From: an uncultured Prevotellaceae bacterium
GTDB lineage: Bacteria > Bacteroidota > Bacteroidia > Bacteroidales > Bacteroidaceae
Length of the DNA: 64,000 nucleotides
Assembly: GCA_902781315.1 (NCBI GenBank)
Contig: CACZIT010000008.1
Span: forward strand, 4,176-68,175
Direction: 5' to 3'
In this document: positions 23,059-57,847 of the stretch, in pieces
Layout: each line of letters starts with the position of its first letter
Position numbering within the stretch: the first letter of the stretch is position 1
The notes under the pieces: model-generated
What the model was told of the DNA's origin: nothing
Databases searched by the model: none
Seen by the model: the letters and a program-made list of their open reading frames with translations, nothing else
Program-made: the position numbers and the translations under genes

Positions 23059-23079
23059 TGTTGTTGGTTAATAAATTAT

Positions 23080-23205
23080 GTTCAAAGTTCAAAGCACTTC
23101 GTGCTATGTTCAAGGTTCAAAGTGCTTCGCACTAAGCTCAAAGTTCAAAGCACTTCGCGCTATGTTCAAGGTTCAAGGTGCAAGGCACTTTGTGCTATGT
23201 TCGAA
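23080..23205. repeat. GTTCAA(A/G) heptamers interspersed with four triloop mini-hairpins
   Basis: Hairpins at 23094, 23122, 23150 and 23185 (period 28, 28, 35). Confidence 0.9.
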
Positions 23206-24155: not shown

Positions 24156-25184
24156 CTATCGGCCAACGAGCAGCCGCCCTATCTCATTCAGGGCCACGAA
24201 TCGATAGCGATTAGAATGATGAGGAATAGGAGCATAACTGTAGTGCTTGGCTTCTGCCTTCCTGCGGAGGACATCCTCGGCTGCTTTTACTATCAACGGA
24301 GCTTCGTATGCACTCTCTTTGGGTTCCAAGAGCAACAGCCGCCCTTTTGAACAAGCATCGAAATAGACTCCGCCCGGCTTGTAGTACCGCTCATGGGGCG
24401 AACCTTCGGCAGGAAAGCCATCAGCCAAAAGCACTACCAATGGGTAGCCCTGCTCGCGTATGTATCTGGCGATCTGTCGCTCACCGCCGCTGATGGCAGC
24501 CGTGTAGGTGACGGCTCCATTATGTGCTGCAGCCAGCACTTCTTTCTGCCGCTCAGCAATATGACTGCTGTCAGCGCTTCGCGACATCTTCACCAGTTGA
24601 CGGTCAGGCCAGTCCAAAAGGAAATGGTTGCCCATTGAAGTGAAGGGCAAACCACAAAGTACGGTCTCTCTGTGCATGCGAAATAACTCCGGGTTCTGCC
24701 TTCGCTGCCAGGCTCGTTCAGCATTTGCGTAGACATATTCAATCATTGCATGCAGCTGCCCTTTATGGGTGAGCACCCTATAATAAGGAGGGCCATCGTA
24801 CAGATTGTCCACGATGCCCAGCTTGCGCGCCTCTGCCTTGCAACCCTGCATATATCCGCGCAACACCTCCTTTATGCTTCGCGGCATGGTTCGCATAACC
24901 TGTAACACGATGTGATGATGATCGGGCATCACTTTGTCGGCCAATATCTTTACCTCCGGACAAAGCTCCAGCATGCGGCGCTGCTGATTGATGAGTGCCC
25001 ACCCGATGGGTGTTTTCTCGACTACGGCATTGGCTCCATCGTGCGCAAGTGTGCCGAACAGTAGCTGTCGTGATTTCGCCACCATCGTCACATGCACAAT
25101 GCATGGCTTACGCCATACACTGGGTTCCAGCCACGAAAAGGTTTCGCGTAGAGAGTCCGTCGGTTCTTTTTTGGTATTAGGCAT
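24156..25184 (-). mobile_element. Y1/HUH (IS200/RAYT-like) tyrosine transposase fused to a DprA/SLOG-like C-terminal domain
   Basis: VMPDHHH (HUH position) and EYVYAN (catalytic Tyr position); C-terminal AISGGE...YPLVVLLADGF...GRLLLLEP; flanking hairpins. Confidence 0.75.
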
Positions 25185-26072: not shown

Positions 26073-27320
26073 ATGGAAAAGGCTATATTGAAGTTACTTT
26101 GTGCTGCAAGGCGCATGTCCTTGCTGATTGCTGCGCTGACGGCACCGCTGGCGGGCGCAGCACAGGAGAACGGGGCGCAGCGGCTGTTTGAAACCGTGGA
26201 GGGTGGCATCCCTTATCGCATTCCGGCCATCACGACGTGCCAGGACGGCACGCTCATCGCCGTGAGCGACTACCGCTATTGCGGCAGCGACATCGGCTAT
26301 GGGGCTGTAGACCTGCACTACCGGCTGAGCGAGGACAACGGACTGACGTGGGGCACGGAGCGCATCCTGGCCGACGGAACGGGACTGGAGGAGGACGTGG
26401 CGCAGCCGGAAACGGCATGGCGCTATGCCTTCGGCGACTGTGCCATCGTGGCCGACAGGGAGAGTCCGGAGGTGGTGGTGCTGTGCGTGGGCGGCAAGAC
26501 CGTCTATAGCCGTGCCACGAGGAGGAATCCGAACCGCGTGGTGCTGTTCCGCAGCCACGACAACGGGCGCTCGTGGGACCAAGGCCGCGAACTGACGGAG
26601 CAGATTTATTCGCTCTTCGACCAGCGGAAGGAAGGACCCGTGCAGAGTCTGTTTGTGGGCTCAGGCAAAATTCATCAGAGCCGCTACGTGAAGACGGGGC
26701 AATACTACCGCCTCTACATTGCACTCTGCACGCTGTCGGGCAACTTCGTGCTCTACAGCGACGACCTGGGCGCTACGTGGCAATTGCTGGGCGAGGCCGA
26801 CCACTCGCCAGCCCGCGACGGCGACGAGCCGAAGTGCGAGGAGCTGCCCGACGGAAGCGTCATCCTGAGTTCGCGCTACTGGGGGCGGCTGTACAACATC
26901 TTCACCTTCACCAATGCCGAGCGGGGTGAAGGCTCGTGGGACCTGCGGGCGAAGGCGCTCGACATGAAGGACATCCGCAATGCCTGCAACGGCGAGATTA
27001 TGCTGTTGCCCGTCACGCGCACGAAAGACCGGAAGAAGGTGTGGATAGCCCTACAGAGTGTGCCCTTCGGCCCCGACCGCCAGAACGTGGGGTTCTATTA
27101 TCACGAACTGCTGGCCGAGCACGAAGGTGCCGCCCTGTTTGCCTACCGCTGGAAGAAGGGCCTGCAGGTGAGCCGTCAGTGGTCGGCCTACAGCACGTTT
27201 ACCCTTCAGCACGACGGTCGCCTCGGCTTCCTGTGGGAAGAGGGTCCCACGGGTTATAACATTGATTACCGCCCGCTGACGGTGGAGGAAATCACCCAGG
27301 GGGAATACGCTTTAAGGTAA
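26073..27320 (+). CDS. Sialidase-like protein (GH33, Asp-box)
   Basis: YRIP motif, three Asp boxes (SEDNGLTW, SHDNGRSW, SDDLGATW), C-terminal AYS; signal peptide. Confidence 0.88.
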   Translation: MEKAILKLLCAARRMSLLIAALTAPLAGAAQENGAQRLFETVEGGIPYRIPAITTCQDGTLIAVSDYRYCGSDIGYGAVDLHYRLSEDNGLTWGTERILADGTGLEEDVAQPETAWRYAFGDCAIVADRESPEVVVLCVGGKTVYSRATRRNPNRVVLFRSHDNGRSWDQGRELTEQIYSLFDQRKEGPVQSLFVGSGKIHQSRYVKTGQYYRLYIALCTLSGNFVLYSDDLGATWQLLGEADHSPARDGDEPKCEELPDGSVILSSRYWGRLYNIFTFTNAERGEGSWDLRAKALDMKDIRNACNGEIMLLPVTRTKDRKKVWIALQSVPFGPDRQNVGFYYHELLAEHEGAALFAYRWKKGLQVSRQWSAYSTFTLQHDGRLGFLWEEGPTGYNIDYRPLTVEEITQGEYALR

Positions 27321-27459
27321 TAGGTAACAGGTAATAGGTAACAGGTAATAGGTAATAGGTAACAGGTAATAGGTGTGATTATTCTTTCTTGTGTTGTCTC
27401 CATAAGCAATCGCAAAAACCAAGAGTAATCACACCTATAACCTGTTACCTGTTACCTAT
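27315..27459. repeat. AGGTAA(T/C) heptamer array forming a 39-bp inverted repeat between convergent genes
   Basis: Arms 27348-27386 and 27421-27459 with three mismatches; likely bidirectional terminator. Confidence 0.85.
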
Positions 27460-27462
27460 CAA

Positions 27463-27843
27463 CTACTCGTACAGCTGGAACATGCGCTCCATCATCTGCC
27501 ACTTCTCGTCGGAGGTGGCGGTGGAGTCGCACTGCTGGAAGCAGGCCATGTACTCCTCCCACTCCTGCTGGCGGGGCAGCGTGGCGAGACGCGCCATCGC
27601 TGAGTCCCAGTCGAAGTCGAGAGGGGTCTCGACAATCATCACCAGGCGCGTGCCCAGGATGTAGATGTCCATTTCCAGGATGCCCACCTCGCGGATGCCA
27701 GCCTGAATCTCCGGCCAGGCTTCGCCGCGGCTGTGGCGCCGACGATACTCGGCAATGAGTGCCGGTTCGTCCTTCAGGTCCATCGTCTGCACGTAGCGCT
27801 TCACGGGGACCCGGTATTGCTTCATGATGTTTCCTTCAGTCAT
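27463..27843 (-). CDS. L-fucose/L-rhamnose mutarotase (DUF718-like)
   Basis: IAEYRRRH...WPEI...GILEMDIY...WEEYM; downstream of fucI-fucP. Confidence 0.85.
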   Translation of the reverse strand: MTEGNIMKQYRVPVKRYVQTMDLKDEPALIAEYRRRHSRGEAWPEIQAGIREVGILEMDIYILGTRLVMIVETPLDFDWDSAMARLATLPRQQEWEEYMACFQQCDSTATSDEKWQMMERMFQLYE

Positions 27844-27850
27844 AAGTGTT

Positions 27851-27975
27851 GTCGCTGCGCGACGGTTTAAGGCGCCGTTGGCGCGTGTAAGGTGCCTTCG
27901 GCACGTGTAAGGGCGGCGTTGCCGCCGTGTAAGGACGCTGCGCGTCGTGTAAGGCGCCTGCGGCGCGGTTCAAAT
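27851..27975. repeat. Array of six GC-rich triloop hairpins joined by a constant GTGTAAG linker
   Basis: All six stems are perfectly complementary and five of the six stem sequences are distinct; period about 20 bp. Confidence 0.95.
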
Positions 27976-27978
27976 GGT

Positions 27979-30900
27979 TCAATTGATGAGGACTTTCTTG
28001 CCATTGATGATGAAGAGACCCTTGCGGGGGCGGTTGAGGCGGCGACCACTGAGGTCGAAAATCCGTGGGGTCTTTTCGTTAGCCACTACCTGCGGGATGC
28101 TCGTGGGGTCGAATTCGCTGATGGTGGAGAATTCTTTCCAGACTTCTGCTGCTTGGTATTTTTCCTTTTTACCTAACGGAACAGAAAGTGTAGCAGAGGT
28201 GAACTCCTCGTGCCAACTTTCATCATCACCGCTATACCATTTACAGACAAACACATTCCTGTTGACAGGACATGGTTCTGACATGAACGACACCACAGAA
28301 TTTAGGCTTCTACAATCATAAAATGCATTGTCGCCTATTTCTGCTAACGTTGATGGCAGCTGTAATTCCTGAAGGCCATAACAATACCTAAACGCACTTT
28401 CTCCAATAGAAAGCAACCCCTCGGGAAGAATGACTTTTCTTAAAGAGTAAGCATTCCAGAAAGCGGCTCGCCCTATTTCTTCTATTCCCGGCTCTATGAT
28501 TAAGGATTTCATGGGACACCCCACGAATGCACTATTTCCAATAGACTTAACCTCATACGGCTTTCCATCTATCTCTATCGAAGAAGGTATCACAACGTCT
28601 TGATCCCTTAAGATTTCAGCATCACTTCTTACAACCGATGCGATATTTTCGCCAGTAGCATAGGAATAGGTAATACCCTCAATGGTTATTTCTTTGAGCT
28701 CGCCCTGACAGATTGTACTGAATTCATTCCAAACTGCTGCCGATTCGTAGTTTGGCTTCGTACCTATCGGAACATAAAGCGTAGCAGAAGTGAACTCCTC
28801 GACCGACGTATCATCGTCATACCATCTCCAAACAGTGAAAACATTTCTACTCACAGCACAGGGTTCTGACATATATGACACTACCGCCTTCAAATTGTAA
28901 CAATTGCCAAATGCATTGACAGCAATTTCTTCTAACGTTGAGGGCAGATATATTTCCTTAAGTTCAGAACAATATTGGAATGCTTGCTCACCGATAGAAA
29001 GCAATCCCTCTGGCAGCACAGCTTTCTCAAGCTGATAGGCATTAAAGAAAGCATTTCGCCCTATTTCTTCTATTCCAGGTTCTATAGTTAAGGATTTCAT
29101 AAGGCAATCTTCGAAGGCATTATTCGCAATAGACTTCACCTCATACGACTTTCCATCTATCTCTATCGAAGAAGGAATCACAACATCTTTATCCCTTAGC
29201 ATTTCAGCATCGCTTCTTTCAATCGAAGCTACGGCTTCACCCGTGGCATAGAAATATGTAATGCCCTCAATGGTAATTTCTTTTAGCTCGCCCTGATAGA
29301 TTTTTTTGAATTCATTCCACCCTGCAGACGACTCATAGTTTGGCTTCGTACCTATCGGTACATATAGCGTGGCAGAAGAGAAACCCTCGACCAACGTATT
29401 ATCGTCAAGCCATTTCCAAAGAGTGAAAGCATTCCTATTCACAGCACATGGTTCTGACATATATGACACCACCCAATTCAAATCGTTACACTTGGCGAAG
29501 GCATGGTTGCCGATTGCCTTCAGCGTTGAAGGCAGATGGATTTCTCTGAGTCCATAGCACTCTTGGAATGCTGATTCGCCAATGAACAGCAGTCCTTCTG
29601 GCATTATTACCTTTTTTAGTGAGTTAACATTCCCAAAAGCATAGTTGTCAATTCTTGTTACGCGATAGTTTGTACCATCAAGGCTTACTGTTGATGGAAT
29701 CTCAAGACTATTCCATTCATAGGAAGAATAATCTCCATTTATCAACTTAGCTTCTTTGGTTCCTATATTGCACAAAAACACAAGGCCATTATCAGTAATT
29801 TCCTTCACGCCATAGATGGTGACCTCTGACGTTCCCATCACACAGGTACCCTCTTCGTCGGACGTGATTTTCACGGGAAAAGTGCCTGGACCATCAGCAG
29901 TAAATGAAAGGTAAATGTTGCCCGTCTGCCCAGGTTCTACGCAACCGATGCCTTGTCCCATCTTTTGCCAATCACTGCTCCCTCTCATCCAGAAATAGAC
30001 CCTTTCCTGCATCACATCACTGGTGTTTGTAATATTGATAGTGACATCCACCTTTGAATTTTCTGCCATTTCACCACTGTAGTCAACACTGTTAACGGTA
30101 TAGGTGGCGCCTGGCTTAAAACCTCTGACCGATAGCGTATTACCCGTTATCTGTGCGTAAATACACTTCACCGTTGAGATGATAGTCCAATCGCTGTCTC
30201 CCACATATCGATAGACTGGCACGAGTTTATAGTTCCCATCGGAAAGACCTGCGCCAAAGGAAATCGGGTTCGGTCCGTCATAATAACTCCACCTGTCAGT
30301 ACGGTTATCAATATGTATTTGCTTGTATGCTGCCACGTTCTCCATCTTGCCATCAATGCAGACGGCCCAGCCTGCTTCGATGTCACAGGTGGTAGTGGGC
30401 GGTAATGTATAAGATATTCCGAGATGGCATCCTTCCGTTGAAACACCCTCGAAGTCGGCATTGGTCGAATTGCGCCAATAAGTTGCCTCGGGCATATCTT
30501 CCGTATATGAACTAACGACAGGTAGTTCTGGCTCATTGTCGCTGGCGGGCTGAAAACCTATGACTGCCACCTGACCAAATGCATATCCAGCCGTGCCGGA
30601 GCCGCCGCCGATGCCCTTCTCGTCAGGATTGGCCAGCGAGAGCACAAAATAGCCGTCGCTGCCGCCGCCCCAGCCCCAGTTGATGTGGAAGAAGCCCTCG
30701 CCGTCGTAGCCGTCACACACAAACTGATGGGCACTGCTCCCAGAACCTCCTTCATACAACACGGGGCGATTGCTGGCCAGCTCGTTGTATATCAGGTTCT
30801 CCCACTCTTCGACAGAATAATCTTCGCGCGAAGCCCTCCAAGCATTCTTGCTATAGGAAAACAATTCTGCCATCACGTCCAGATGAACATACGCAGAAGA

Positions 30901-31662
30901 CCCTCCTTGCTTGTAGTTCATCGAATTGGCCTGCCCGACATATAGCATCAGTTCCGCCACGGCATCGGCCGAAGCACCAGTTTCCTGATGTTGGTAGTGA
31001 TCCTTCATCAGATTCCACTTGAACGTGGTAGGCGGCAGTTCGGGCATGACTATTTTTTTTGTGCCAGTGGTGTAGCCGGGAATGGCAGGGCAGTTCAGCG
31101 GCCACTGGTGATAGTTCATCACCTGTGCCAAAGCCGTCGCCACGCACCCCGTCACGTAGTGCGATTCGTTGCCGCTTTCGTCAATGTAGGTGGGCGTCAT
31201 CAGGCTGTAGGGCAGACTCTGATTCCACGTAGTCGTGATGAGCGGCGCAATGGCGGGTTTCTCCTCCGCCGCCGTCAGCGCCGAGGTTGCCGCAGCGCCT
31301 TCGTCGAGCGAAGCAATCTGCTCGGCATAGCCCTCCAGCCAGCAGCGCAGGTTGACGGGCAGGCTGTCGGCGTTGAGTGCTCCGCTATCGGCATAGCCCA
31401 GAATGGGCAAGGTGCGGTCGTCGCCCGAGACAATGACGAAACCTCGCCCTTTCTCATCGTTGAACACATAGAAGGGATGGTCAGAATCCTCGCCCTTGGC
31501 ACGCCTCCACGACCTGCCCTCGGCAAACTGCCTCGAGGGCATGAACTGCCGGGCCTTCAGTAGCGCCTCGCTCCTTGAAACGGGATGGGCCTGCACGGCT
31601 GTAGAAACCACTATCAGCAATAACAGTATTACACTTCTTCTCATCAGGTTGTTCTTTCGCAT
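27979..31662 (-). CDS. Peptidase C10 (streptopain-like) with BspA-type LRR modules and T9SS C-terminal tail
   Basis: Spi-like prodomain, GCVATALAQ (Cys), AHQFVCDG (His), HINWGW; three 196-aa LRR modules (588-bp period); tail IFDLSGRR...GLFIINGKK. Confidence 0.9.
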   Translation of the reverse strand: MRKNNLMRRSVILLLLIVVSTAVQAHPVSRSEALLKARQFMPSRQFAEGRSWRRAKGEDSDHPFYVFNDEKGRGFVIVSGDDRTLPILGYADSGALNADSLPVNLRCWLEGYAEQIASLDEGAAATSALTAAEEKPAIAPLITTTWNQSLPYSLMTPTYIDESGNESHYVTGCVATALAQVMNYHQWPLNCPAIPGYTTGTKKIVMPELPPTTFKWNLMKDHYQHQETGASADAVAELMLYVGQANSMNYKQGGSSAYVHLDVMAELFSYSKNAWRASREDYSVEEWENLIYNELASNRPVLYEGGSGSSAHQFVCDGYDGEGFFHINWGWGGGSDGYFVLSLANPDEKGIGGGSGTAGYAFGQVAVIGFQPASDNEPELPVVSSYTEDMPEATYWRNSTNADFEGVSTEGCHLGISYTLPPTTTCDIEAGWAVCIDGKMENVAAYKQIHIDNRTDRWSYYDGPNPISFGAGLSDGNYKLVPVYRYVGDSDWTIISTVKCIYAQITGNTLSVRGFKPGATYTVNSVDYSGEMAENSKVDVTINITNTSDVMQERVYFWMRGSSDWQKMGQGIGCVEPGQTGNIYLSFTADGPGTFPVKITSDEEGTCVMGTSEVTIYGVKEITDNGLVFLCNIGTKEAKLINGDYSSYEWNSLEIPSTVSLDGTNYRVTRIDNYAFGNVNSLKKVIMPEGLLFIGESAFQECYGLREIHLPSTLKAIGNHAFAKCNDLNWVVSYMSEPCAVNRNAFTLWKWLDDNTLVEGFSSATLYVPIGTKPNYESSAGWNEFKKIYQGELKEITIEGITYFYATGEAVASIERSDAEMLRDKDVVIPSSIEIDGKSYEVKSIANNAFEDCLMKSLTIEPGIEEIGRNAFFNAYQLEKAVLPEGLLSIGEQAFQYCSELKEIYLPSTLEEIAVNAFGNCYNLKAVVSYMSEPCAVSRNVFTVWRWYDDDTSVEEFTSATLYVPIGTKPNYESAAVWNEFSTICQGELKEITIEGITYSYATGENIASVVRSDAEILRDQDVVIPSSIEIDGKPYEVKSIGNSAFVGCPMKSLIIEPGIEEIGRAAFWNAYSLRKVILPEGLLSIGESAFRYCYGLQELQLPSTLAEIGDNAFYDCRSLNSVVSFMSEPCPVNRNVFVCKWYSGDDESWHEEFTSATLSVPLGKKEKYQAAEVWKEFSTISEFDPTSIPQVVANEKTPRIFDLSGRRLNRPRKGLFIINGKKVLIN

Positions 31663-31818
31663 AGTTTTTTTTGATTCTTATTGAGTTTTCGATGTTGTGA
31701 CAGCAAAGATACGGTTGAACTTCACTGCCGGCCTGCCGTAGTCCTGATACAAGGTGGCGGGGAGCTCGTGCTACTCCACATAGGCGGCAATGGCTTCGGC
31801 GCGCACGGCCTCACGGGC

Positions 31819-32712
31819 TTACTCGTCGGAGGCTATGCGCTGGAACTCGCCGAATGCGGGTGTGCCTTCACCACTGAGGGTGACTGGCAGCGAGAGTGTG
31901 GGCATGTCGTCGTAGATGAGCACGGGGCTGTCCGCGAACTTCACGCCGGGCACCACCTGCAACTGTACCTGACCACCCGCGAGGTCGTAGAACAGTTGTT
32001 CGCCAATAAAAAGGAGAGGACTCTCCCCCTGCCCCTCCCTATCAGGGAGGGGAGTAGTTACCTTTTCTTGCGGAGACTTTTGATGCAGAGGGATATCACT
32101 CCCCTCCCTGATAGGAAGGGGTTGGGGGAGAGTCGCCAGAGGAGTGACGCCGTCGGGGGTGACGCTGCAGAGCGTGACGCTATCGCCGTCGAGGGTGTAG
32201 CCCAAGCGCTGGCAAAGGGCCTGCTGTACGTCGTAGGGATTCACGACAGCAGCCACGTAGGCCGAGTCGTTGTCGTGGAAGCGAATCTGATAGAGCCACT
32301 CCACACGCACGCCCGAACCCTCCATGGCGCTGCTGGTGAGCCAGAGGTTGCCGGTCTGCGCGTCGTAGCAGGCCATGGGTTGGCGCGTGTTGCGGATGTT
32401 GAGGAAGGTGGTCGACGTGGAACCCTTCGTAACCATGATGCCATAACCTTCAGTTGACGTCGTATCGACCTCGCCGATGCCACAGACGCTGATGCTGTTG
32501 GCCTCGTCGCTCAGGATGTCGAACGGGTGCACCTTCAAGGCCTTCCCGTAGGCTTCCTGCACATGCTGCGGCGCGGTGTCGGCAGGTAGGGGCGCATCGA
32601 GGGTTCCTGCCACGAGGCGAACGCCCGACTGCTTGGTCTGGCAACTATTCATCAACACACTCAGACCGCCCAGAAAGATGACGGCGGCTGCTATCACTAG
32701 AATCTTTTTCAT
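31819..32712 (-). CDS. Hypothetical lipoprotein with in-frame REP doublet, possibly C-terminally truncated
   Basis: Lipobox LMNSC; insert 32019-32134; coding-like in-frame sequence continues beyond the TAA. Confidence 0.75.
   Translation of the reverse strand: MKKILVIAAAVIFLGGLSVLMNSCQTKQSGVRLVAGTLDAPLPADTAPQHVQEAYGKALKVHPFDILSDEANSISVCGIGEVDTTSTEGYGIMVTKGSTSTTFLNIRNTRQPMACYDAQTGNLWLTSSAMEGSGVRVEWLYQIRFHDNDSAYVAAVVNPYDVQQALCQRLGYTLDGDSVTLCSVTPDGVTPLATLPQPLPIREGSDIPLHQKSPQEKVTTPLPDREGQGESPLLFIGEQLFYDLAGGQVQLQVVPGVKFADSPVLIYDDMPTLSLPVTLSGEGTPAFGEFQRIASDE
32019..32134. repeat. Inverted doublet of the 37-bp palindrome (arms 37 bp, spacer 42 bp), in frame
   Basis: GACTCTCCCCCTGCCCCTCCCTATCAGGGAGGGGAGT and its reverse complement with three mismatches. 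Confidence 0.9.
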
Positions 32713-57773: not shown

Positions 57774-57847
57774 GCTGCAAAGCAGCATTGAACCGGCCGA
57801 AGGCCATCGAACCGCGCCGTAGGCGCTTCTCAACCGCGCGTCAGCGC
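57774..57847. repeat. Array of four mini-hairpins joined by (T/C)GAACC-type linkers
   Basis: GCTGC-aaa-GCAGC, GGCC-gaa-GGCC, GCGCC-gta-GGCGC, GCGC-gtca-GCGC. Confidence 0.85.

Follow-up and report, generated by a model that had tools for sequence, protein, structure and literature searches.

Tandem mini-hairpin arrays in an uncultured Prevotellaceae genome: a probable, strain-variable variant of REP/BIME-type palindromes related to Gut-1

Introduction

REP and BIME elements are extragenic palindromes that lie mainly where the neighbouring genes are co-directional or convergent (Di Nocera et al. 2013, PMC3733652). Gut-1 (RF01706) is a non-coding RNA motif that was described from 43 human-gut metagenome sequences without being assigned a function (Weinberg et al. 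2010, PMC2864571), and both Gut-1 and Acido-Lenti-1 (RF01687) have been orphan Rfam motifs without known function since 2010. Within the Bacteroidales, BrickBuilt is a MITE of Porphyromonas gingivalis that contains an internal 23-nt minisatellite (Klein et al. 2015, PMC4596501).

In this study, we analysed an array of six small hairpins located in a 64,000-nt stretch of DNA (hereafter, the window; C8:4176-68175) from a bovine gut draft genome of 3.52 Mb with a GC content of 54%, which belongs to a rumen Prevotella-like bacterium. The public sequencing runs that hold this genome are bovine gut metagenomes. The initial annotation considered that the array fits no repeat class; however, its architecture is that of Rfam Gut-1 (RF01706), and its placement and dynamics are those of REP/BIME elements (PMC3733652). 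No previous report of such arrays in Prevotella was found in a literature search.

Results

The array and its surroundings

Six perfect GC hairpins with stems of 5-6 bp and loops of 3 nt occupy positions 27851-27966 of the window and are followed by a heptamer tail (Table 1). The six-hairpin array reported in the initial annotation was confirmed letter for letter at 27851-27982. Its units are regularly spaced at 20-22 bp, and it mixes linkers, as single arrays of the family can. None of 20,000 dinucleotide-preserving shuffles of the 125 nt contained more than three non-overlapping perfect hairpins with 5-bp stems and 3-nt loops, compared with the six observed, and all six are present in the minimum free energy fold of the minus strand, computed as DNA. 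Read on the minus strand, the loops are, in order, GCA, AAC, GAA, AAC, GCA and GCA, such that four of the six, and not all of them, are of the G-N-A type (GCA or GAA) and the other two are AAC. The minus-strand form of hairpin 3, GTGCCGAAGGCAC, occurs eight times among the CTTACAC-family units of the genome, CTTACAC being the reverse complement of GTGTAAG. The window array is a solo copy, lacking a palindromic core.

Table 1. Features of the array, its flanking genes and the Y1-like gene (window coordinates)
Feature	Position	Strand	Remarks
Y1-like gene	24156-25184	-	342-aa ORF with PDHHH and YVYAN motifs; weak NF047646 match; C-terminal half unassigned
L-rhamnose mutarotase-like (rhaM-like) ORF	27463-27843	-	PF05336; downstream gene
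Hairpin 1, GTCGC-TGC-GCGAC	27851-27863	-	minus strand reads GTCGC-GCA-GCGAC
First linker, GGTTTAAG	27864-27871	-	minus strand reads CTTAAACC
Hairpin 2, GCGCC-GTT-GGCGC	27872-27884	-	
Linker GTGTAAG, copy 1	27885-27891	-	minus strand reads CTTACAC
Hairpin 3, GTGCC-TTC-GGCAC	27892-27904	-	
Linker GTGTAAG, copy 2	27905-27911	-	
Hairpin 4, GGCGGC-GTT-GCCGCC	27912-27926	-	6-bp stem
Linker GTGTAAG, copy 3	27927-27933	-	
Hairpin 5, GACGC-TGC-GCGTC	27934-27946	-	
Linker GTGTAAG, copy 4	27947-27953	-	
Hairpin 6, GCGCC-TGC-GGCGC	27954-27966	-	
Heptamer tail, GGTTCAA-AT-GGTTCAA	27967-27982	-	TTGAAC linker family
Peptidase_C10 and BspA-type LRR protein	27979-31662	-	upstream gene

The array occupies the interval that separates two genes on the minus strand, with hairpin 1 lying 8 nt upstream of the first ATG in the rhaM-like ORF. 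At its other end, the second GGTTCAA heptamer supplies the stop codon of the protease ORF (TGA, 27979-27981). The protease gene is carried on a 3.8-kb segment of low GC content (about 43%; about 27977-31810) that is inserted exactly in the heptamer tail and is absent from two metagenome strains, which are about 96% identical. In these two cassette-free strains, the tail consists of 3-4 GTTCAA heptamers plus an extra hairpin, GCGC-TTC-GCGC, and the array runs straight into the stop of a 306-aa gene at 31819. Neither a recombinase gene nor a guide-array effector gene was found beside the array.

A 748-nt RNA-seq contig connects rhaM with the array up to position 27963. Given that RNA-seq contigs join the two, the array appears to be transcribed, although the contigs are unstranded and possibly include DNA, and the arrays are carried passively into transcripts. 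The fold of the array as RNA has a z-score of -3.3. Since no T-run is present after the hairpins, intrinsic terminators were ruled out. Guide arrays of the CRISPR or TIGR type were also rejected: their logic is the inverse of that seen here, where the variable segments base-pair with one another, leaving only 3 bp free, and the units are spread over about 60 loci with no adjacent effector gene.

The window contains further repeats. Two more arrays of the same superfamily, at 23077-23189 and 57774-57847, have TTGAAC/GTTCAAA and TCTCAAC linkers, co-varying stems of 4-5 bp and equal loop polarity. A separate tandem family with a 22-nt unit, made up of TTACCAC-NNNN-GTGGTAA and a spacer of 5 nt, in which the stem is constant and the loop variable, is present at window positions 10866-10973, at C4:104747, C16:68019 and C26:39422 and at many other loci. 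Finally, heptamer arrays that face an inverted copy of themselves were observed at window positions 27315-27374 and 27440-27457 and, in the same genome, at C6:18215-18370; in these, (AGGTAAT)n faces ACCTGTT..., or (GAGAGTT)n is followed by (TCTCAAC+hairpin)n, giving long palindromes of the 'beads-on-a-string' kind that resemble the clusters reported in bioRxiv 10.64898/2026.10.21.760802.

Pairing, loops and strand polarity of the units

The unit of the family measures about 20 nt and consists of a constant 7-nt linker and a hairpin of the form G-NNN-C / G..A loop / G-N'N'N'-C. In a set of 45 distinct 27-nt units, 99.1% of the pair cells were Watson-Crick, compared with 70.2% in shuffles, and 55 cells were changed on both sides when 13.6 were expected, which bears out the early claim that the linker is conserved and the stems co-vary. 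The outer G-C pair was kept in 44 of the 45 units and the loop-closing C-G pair in 43, both being essentially invariant, and the three inner base pairs vary freely, with three or four pair types each. Constraint is confined to base pairing, to the ends of the hairpin, to the type of loop and to the linker. Of the 67 adjacent pairs of exact CTTACAC linkers obtained when sites were picked by linker only, 63 enclosed a perfect hairpin, and two of the four exceptions correspond to one hairpin (AGCCCGAAGGGC) shifted by one base.

In the literature, loops of the G-N-A type are described as especially stable in single-stranded DNA. On the linker strand, about 199 loops are GAA, GCA, GTA, GACA and the like, compared with about four of the complementary T..C type. 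This G..A rule holds across all three linker families, TTC and TGC being nearly absent from the linker strand. Such strong loop polarity fits an action on one DNA strand. Three other ways of telling the strands apart were tried and dropped. The few mismatches showed no excess of G-U over A-C on either strand, and they are too few for a choice; nearest-neighbour folding models gave both strands alike; and local GC skew gave only a weak strand trend (37 versus 21), in a draft genome in which inverted array pairs confound this measure, so that a replication-strand bias was not retained.

Genome-wide distribution and placement

A pattern search of this genome and its relatives showed that the design recurs throughout the genome, with about 330 units at about 61 loci, and the array is therefore not unique to the window site. 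The units fall into three linker families, CTTACAC (127 units), TCTCAAC (125) and TTGAAC (82). Clusters of at least three perfect hairpins numbered 122-123 in the genome and 10 in a locally shuffled genome, and clusters of at least four numbered 39 and 1, respectively. The hairpins of the family are 11-16 nt long and form direct head-to-tail arrays of up to 10 units, and in many cases, arrays form the two arms, inverted with respect to each other, of a palindromic core that measures about 230 bp. Pure heptamer microsatellites of the linker motifs were also detected, GAGAGTT at 11 loci and GTTCAAA at nine; CTTACAC never occurs in this form in the genome.

Among the 61 merged loci, 46 were classed as intergenic, eight were at contig ends and seven were within ORF calls. 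The flanking genes were co-directional at 37 loci, convergent at seven and divergent at two, compared with a background by intergenic length of 66, 16 and 17%. The units are dispersed over about 60 mostly 3'-proximal intergenic sites. The arrays occur in either orientation with respect to genes: in the CTTACAC family, 14 were antisense and three sense, in addition to inverted pairs, and in the TCTCAAC family, the orientations were split 10 versus 8.

In the palindromic core, a long central hairpin lies between two double hairpins in inverted orientation, and hairpin arrays, likewise inverted, are found on the outside; examples are found at C1:210230-210750 (L136), C11:90-380 (L139) and C44:16330-16860 (L137). 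A further repeat of 54-97 nt lies upstream of one of the Y1_Tnp genes (C25:106096-106157) and is present at many contig ends, namely the starts of C11, C39, C3 and C58 and the ends of C8, C35 and C41; in C11 and C39, the palindromic core comes next. This repeat is probably the boundary of a multi-copy element that breaks the assembly.

Turnover between strains

Hairpins 1-5 are identical in the three strains compared at the window locus. The first linker reads GGTTTAAG here, GGGTTAAG in strain L204 and GGGTTAAT in strain L223, and unit 6 reads GCGCC-TGC-GGCGC here, GCGCC-GTT-GGCGC in L204 and GCGCCC-TGC-GGGCGC in L223. In the last case, one base pair was gained and both arms are longer by one base, a concerted change. 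Another strain has two units at this locus instead of six, units 2-5 being missing.

Larger differences were detected elsewhere. The metagenome-assembled genome (MAG) 'Bacteroidales bacterium UBA3630', which belongs to the same species (99.3% identity over 3.1 kb), differs from the genome analysed here by a three-unit indel bounded by an identical unit. Other loci have four versus seven units with a reshuffled order, or seven versus three units, and at one locus, half of the array was exchanged for other units with another linker family between flanks that are 97-99% identical. Comparing strains for unit gain and loss, as the initial annotation had proposed, thus revealed gain, loss and replacement of whole units. 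Given that flanks remain 96-99% identical, these changes indicate that the arrays turn over much faster than by point substitution. The initial annotation had also argued that simple slippage does not explain the array, a view that cannot be upheld as it stands: since strains differ by units gained or lost, slippage or recombination contributes to what is seen.

Distribution in relatives

The genome has 39 occurrences of the exact three-linker pattern, which was absent from 36 genomes of the same genus and 24 of the same order. No arrays of the family were found in 200 kb from each of two congeners (45% GC) or in the DNA fetched around the rhaM orthologues of 13 congeners, one of which has near this gene a single hairpin cluster of a different kind. 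A specific unit pattern gave 31 metagenome matches, nearly all from the same or a close species, and none in viral contigs, such that a phage origin was discarded. In a broad GTDB scan, two of 130 sites among the matches listed (115 stretches) were true hairpin arrays. A MAG named 'Prevotella sp.' shows about 84% identity. The exact linker is specific to the species.

With the looser pattern TTNCAC, a few other congeners were found to own abundant short repeat families, and their designs differ where examined. Among the same-genus genomes G090, G088, G154 and G034, G090 has about 95 matches of a 21-nt repeat, ATTTCAC-NNN-GTGAA-CACTAT, and in several congeners, (TTTTCAC)3-4 lies directly 5' of TACCTTTGCAC, a Bacteroidetes promoter-like box. 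The many heptamer repeats had suggested cyanobacterial STRR heptamers, a candidate that was discarded considering that the flanking genes are Bacteroidales-like, the runs are from the bovine gut and the species is that of UBA3630.

Matches to Rfam motifs

A Gut-1 (RF01706) match was obtained at window positions 27841-27916 with 28.4 bits, below the gathering threshold of 50, and the best score in the genome, 32.4 bits, was also below it. Aligned to the model, whose consensus comprises three variable hairpins, the window sequence has an identical layout. A true Gut-1 (55 bits) is present in a genome of the same genus, where it has two inverted arms and adjoins a transposase-like open frame on the opposite strand, probably of the IS3 type.

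Many arrays are capped by a double hairpin (CCAGCCAATGAATTGGCTGG...CCCGTCCCTACGGGAC), which matches Acido-Lenti-1 (RF01687) with 31-38 bits (cut-off, 37). There are 23 such matches in the genome and 74 in G010, a congener without CTTACAC arrays; in the Bacteroidales, the motif has a patchy, multi-copy spread. These matches often form inverted pairs about 150 nt apart, a REPIN/MITE-like behaviour. As to the features of MITEs, the composite copies are palindromic, and the public contigs, searched at a composite element, yielded noisy repeat joints and no clean empty site; two apparent empty sites were shorter arrays.

Y1/HUH genes

The Y1-like protein encoded in the window (Table 1) is weakly similar to RAYTs (REP-associated tyrosine transposases), with an E-value of 0.004 for NF047646 and 0.09 for Pfam Y1_Tnp. 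It has four paralogues in the genome. Homologues are present in 19 of 61 relatives, and CTTACAC arrays in none of these 19; the gene was not found in two other array-bearing genomes, one of them of only 2.2 Mb. Given its weak RAYT similarity and its lack of co-occurrence with the arrays, this protein was rejected as their engine. The genome also has three canonical Y1_Tnp genes (C11:77954-78655, C29:39027-39578 and C25:105583-106098), each with its own flanking inverted repeats; the possibility that these are flanked by array units was likewise discarded (0 of 3).

Discussion

The array is best explained as a solo locus of lineage-specific, hypervariable REP/BIME-like tandem mini-hairpin DNA repeats with Gut-1 architecture, maintained at the DNA level, an explanation to which we give roughly an even chance. 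Arrays would grow and shrink through replication slippage or unequal recombination, for which the constant linkers and identical units would offer homology, and an extruded hairpin would stabilize the slipped strand. A change in one arm would be undone or else transferred to the opposite arm through intra-hairpin template switching at quasipalindromes, which is an established mutational mechanism (PMC7202029) and is inferred here from the single concerted change in L223. The stems would thereby stay perfectly paired while their sequence drifts. Only units that fold on one DNA strand, the one with the G..A loops, would keep propagating. Dispersal to new loci would need a trans-acting activity, the obvious candidate being a Y1/HUH enzyme, and any host effect, such as mRNA 3'-end protection or gene insulation, would be a by-product, as for REP elements. 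The array family behaves like REP-type selfish DNA and not like a dedicated RNA gene.

Several observations count against this explanation. Local duplication followed by divergence predicts similar neighbours, whereas the same arm was found in neighbouring CTTACAC-family units twice when 6.2 cases were expected (P=0.05), such that neighbours are, if anything, less alike. The unit order was common to different loci no more often than by chance (3 versus 1.2, P=0.1), and thus neither whole-array copying nor a common ancestor is supported. Considering that hairpins between direct repeats should be prone to deletion, some generating force must balance the loss. Moreover, slippage alone cannot seed about 60 loci.

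The main rival to slippage and recombination is that each unit is a miniature REP, the substrate of a Y1/HUH enzyme of the RAYT type or a similar single-strand DNA enzyme, which we regard as possible, if on the unlikely side. The enzyme would recognize the hairpin shape together with the linker sequence (CTTACAC contains TTAC), cut the linker and insert units singly beside existing ones on one strand, building direct arrays from a genome-wide pool. This would account for the dissimilar neighbours, which look drawn from a pool and not duplicated, and for the strict one-strand polarity of loop and linker better than the preferred explanation does. It also agrees with a hairpin foot and a loop-closing pair that hardly vary around a free inner stem, with remodelling as fast as the half-array replacement described above, and with a dispersal to about 60 loci, which requires an enzyme. 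In the literature, REP arrays are credited to RAYT processing (PMC3733652), and the genome does possess candidates in its three Y1_Tnp genes and the four paralogues of the weakly RAYT-like protein. No linked gene was found, however: the Y1 genes have their own inverted repeats instead of units, the 19 relatives with homologues of the window gene are all devoid of CTTACAC arrays while two array-bearing genomes yielded no such gene, and the linker lacks GTAG, the tag by which RAYT-linked REPs are defined.

Alternatively, selection might act on RNA, the array being either a non-coding RNA of the Gut-1 type or an element that acts in cis, like 'beads on a string', within the mRNA between two genes; it would bind a protein at its GUGUAAG/CUUACAC linkers or block exonucleases. 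The sub-threshold Gut-1 match with identical architecture, the true Gut-1 in the same genus, the strong covariation, the contig running from rhaM into the array, the fold z-score and the avoidance of divergent promoter regions would all agree with this. Yet DNA-level maintenance of palindromes predicts equal covariation, the few mismatches have no G-U excess over A-C, and the contigs are unstranded and may include DNA. The arrays lie in both orientations relative to flanking genes, and the about 60 loci share no conserved promoter, terminator or neighbour gene. Unit number and identity change at 96-99% flank identity, unlike in a conserved RNA gene. An RNA-level function is improbable, fitting poorly with free orientation and strain-level turnover. 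We consider it very improbable that the array is a docking site on double-stranded DNA (iteron- or operator-like) or a recombination or integration hotspot that the host or gene cassettes would use. Its regular spacing and the protease cassette, placed exactly in the heptamer tail and missing from two strains, would be in line with these roles. A palindrome of free sequence in which pairing is kept, however, is not what a sequence-specific duplex-binding protein selects, and the hotspot would have a single cassette case and no adjacent recombinase gene.

A broader and rather doubtful proposal is that the arrays are the product of an unrecognized single-strand DNA process, in which self-templated mini-hairpins, each with an arbitrary, perfectly paired stem, would be added at the constant linker on one strand, be it by an enzyme or by a replication-coupled reaction. 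In that case, Gut-1 and Acido-Lenti-1 would not be RNA genes but footprints that such a mobile-DNA system leaves across gut Bacteroidales.

Both Gut-1 and, for the cap element, Acido-Lenti-1 appear here within repeat DNA of rumen and gut Bacteroidales that is multi-copy and varies between strains, which suggests reading them as REP/MITE-like elements in place of RNA genes. The family also constitutes a clean natural case in which pairing is perfect, the stem sequence drifts, the linker is fixed and the loop polarity is confined to one strand. Whether hairpins are kept up by intra-hairpin template switching and whether a single-strand DNA enzyme acts on them are both testable in a defined system. 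The arrays also break short-read assemblies and mark strain-level changes in gene content, such as the protease cassette in the window.

Comparison with known systems

BrickBuilt is, like the arrays described here, an intergenic tandem repeat of the Bacteroidales with a unit of about 20 nt and a variable copy number. It is always intergenic and transcribed, and its conserved 'leader' and 'tail' parts are often attached and missing at many loci. Its repeats are conserved in sequence, whereas the stems studied here are free and palindromic, and it has IS5-type terminal inverted repeats, whereas the core here is a palindrome resembling Acido-Lenti-1. The latter corresponds to the cap or core element and not to the array, and it is absent from the window locus.

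Gut-1 and the present family both have at least three tandem hairpins with co-varying stems and a constant 7-nt linker, which is GUGAAAU in Gut-1 and GUGUAAG here (five of seven positions identical), and the loop polarity is equal, UUC/UGC on the GUG... strand being GAA/GCA on the other. Gut-1 also comes from gut Bacteroidales. The stems of the present family differ in being shorter and GC-rich, and about 330 units, hypervariable between strains, are found in one genome.

With REP/BIME elements, the family shares short palindromes of high GC content that bear a brief conserved tag at one end, a high copy number, a patchy, species-specific spread, an occurrence as singletons, head-to-head pairs and tandem clusters, transcription, and a placement between co-directional and convergent genes (37 and 7 loci here, compared with two divergent ones). 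The units are far smaller than REPs, and the body is the hypervariable part here, the tag or linker the constant one. In this family, the tag is GTGTAAG/CTTACAC (or TCTCAAC, TTGAAC), which contains GTAAG and not GTAG or CGTC, and long direct arrays of up to 10 units are formed. In contrast to RAYT 'REPtrons', no cognate RAYT flanked by array units was found. Taken as a whole, the array family is a variant of the REP/BIME-type extragenic palindromes and a relative of Gut-1, and does not constitute a new category.
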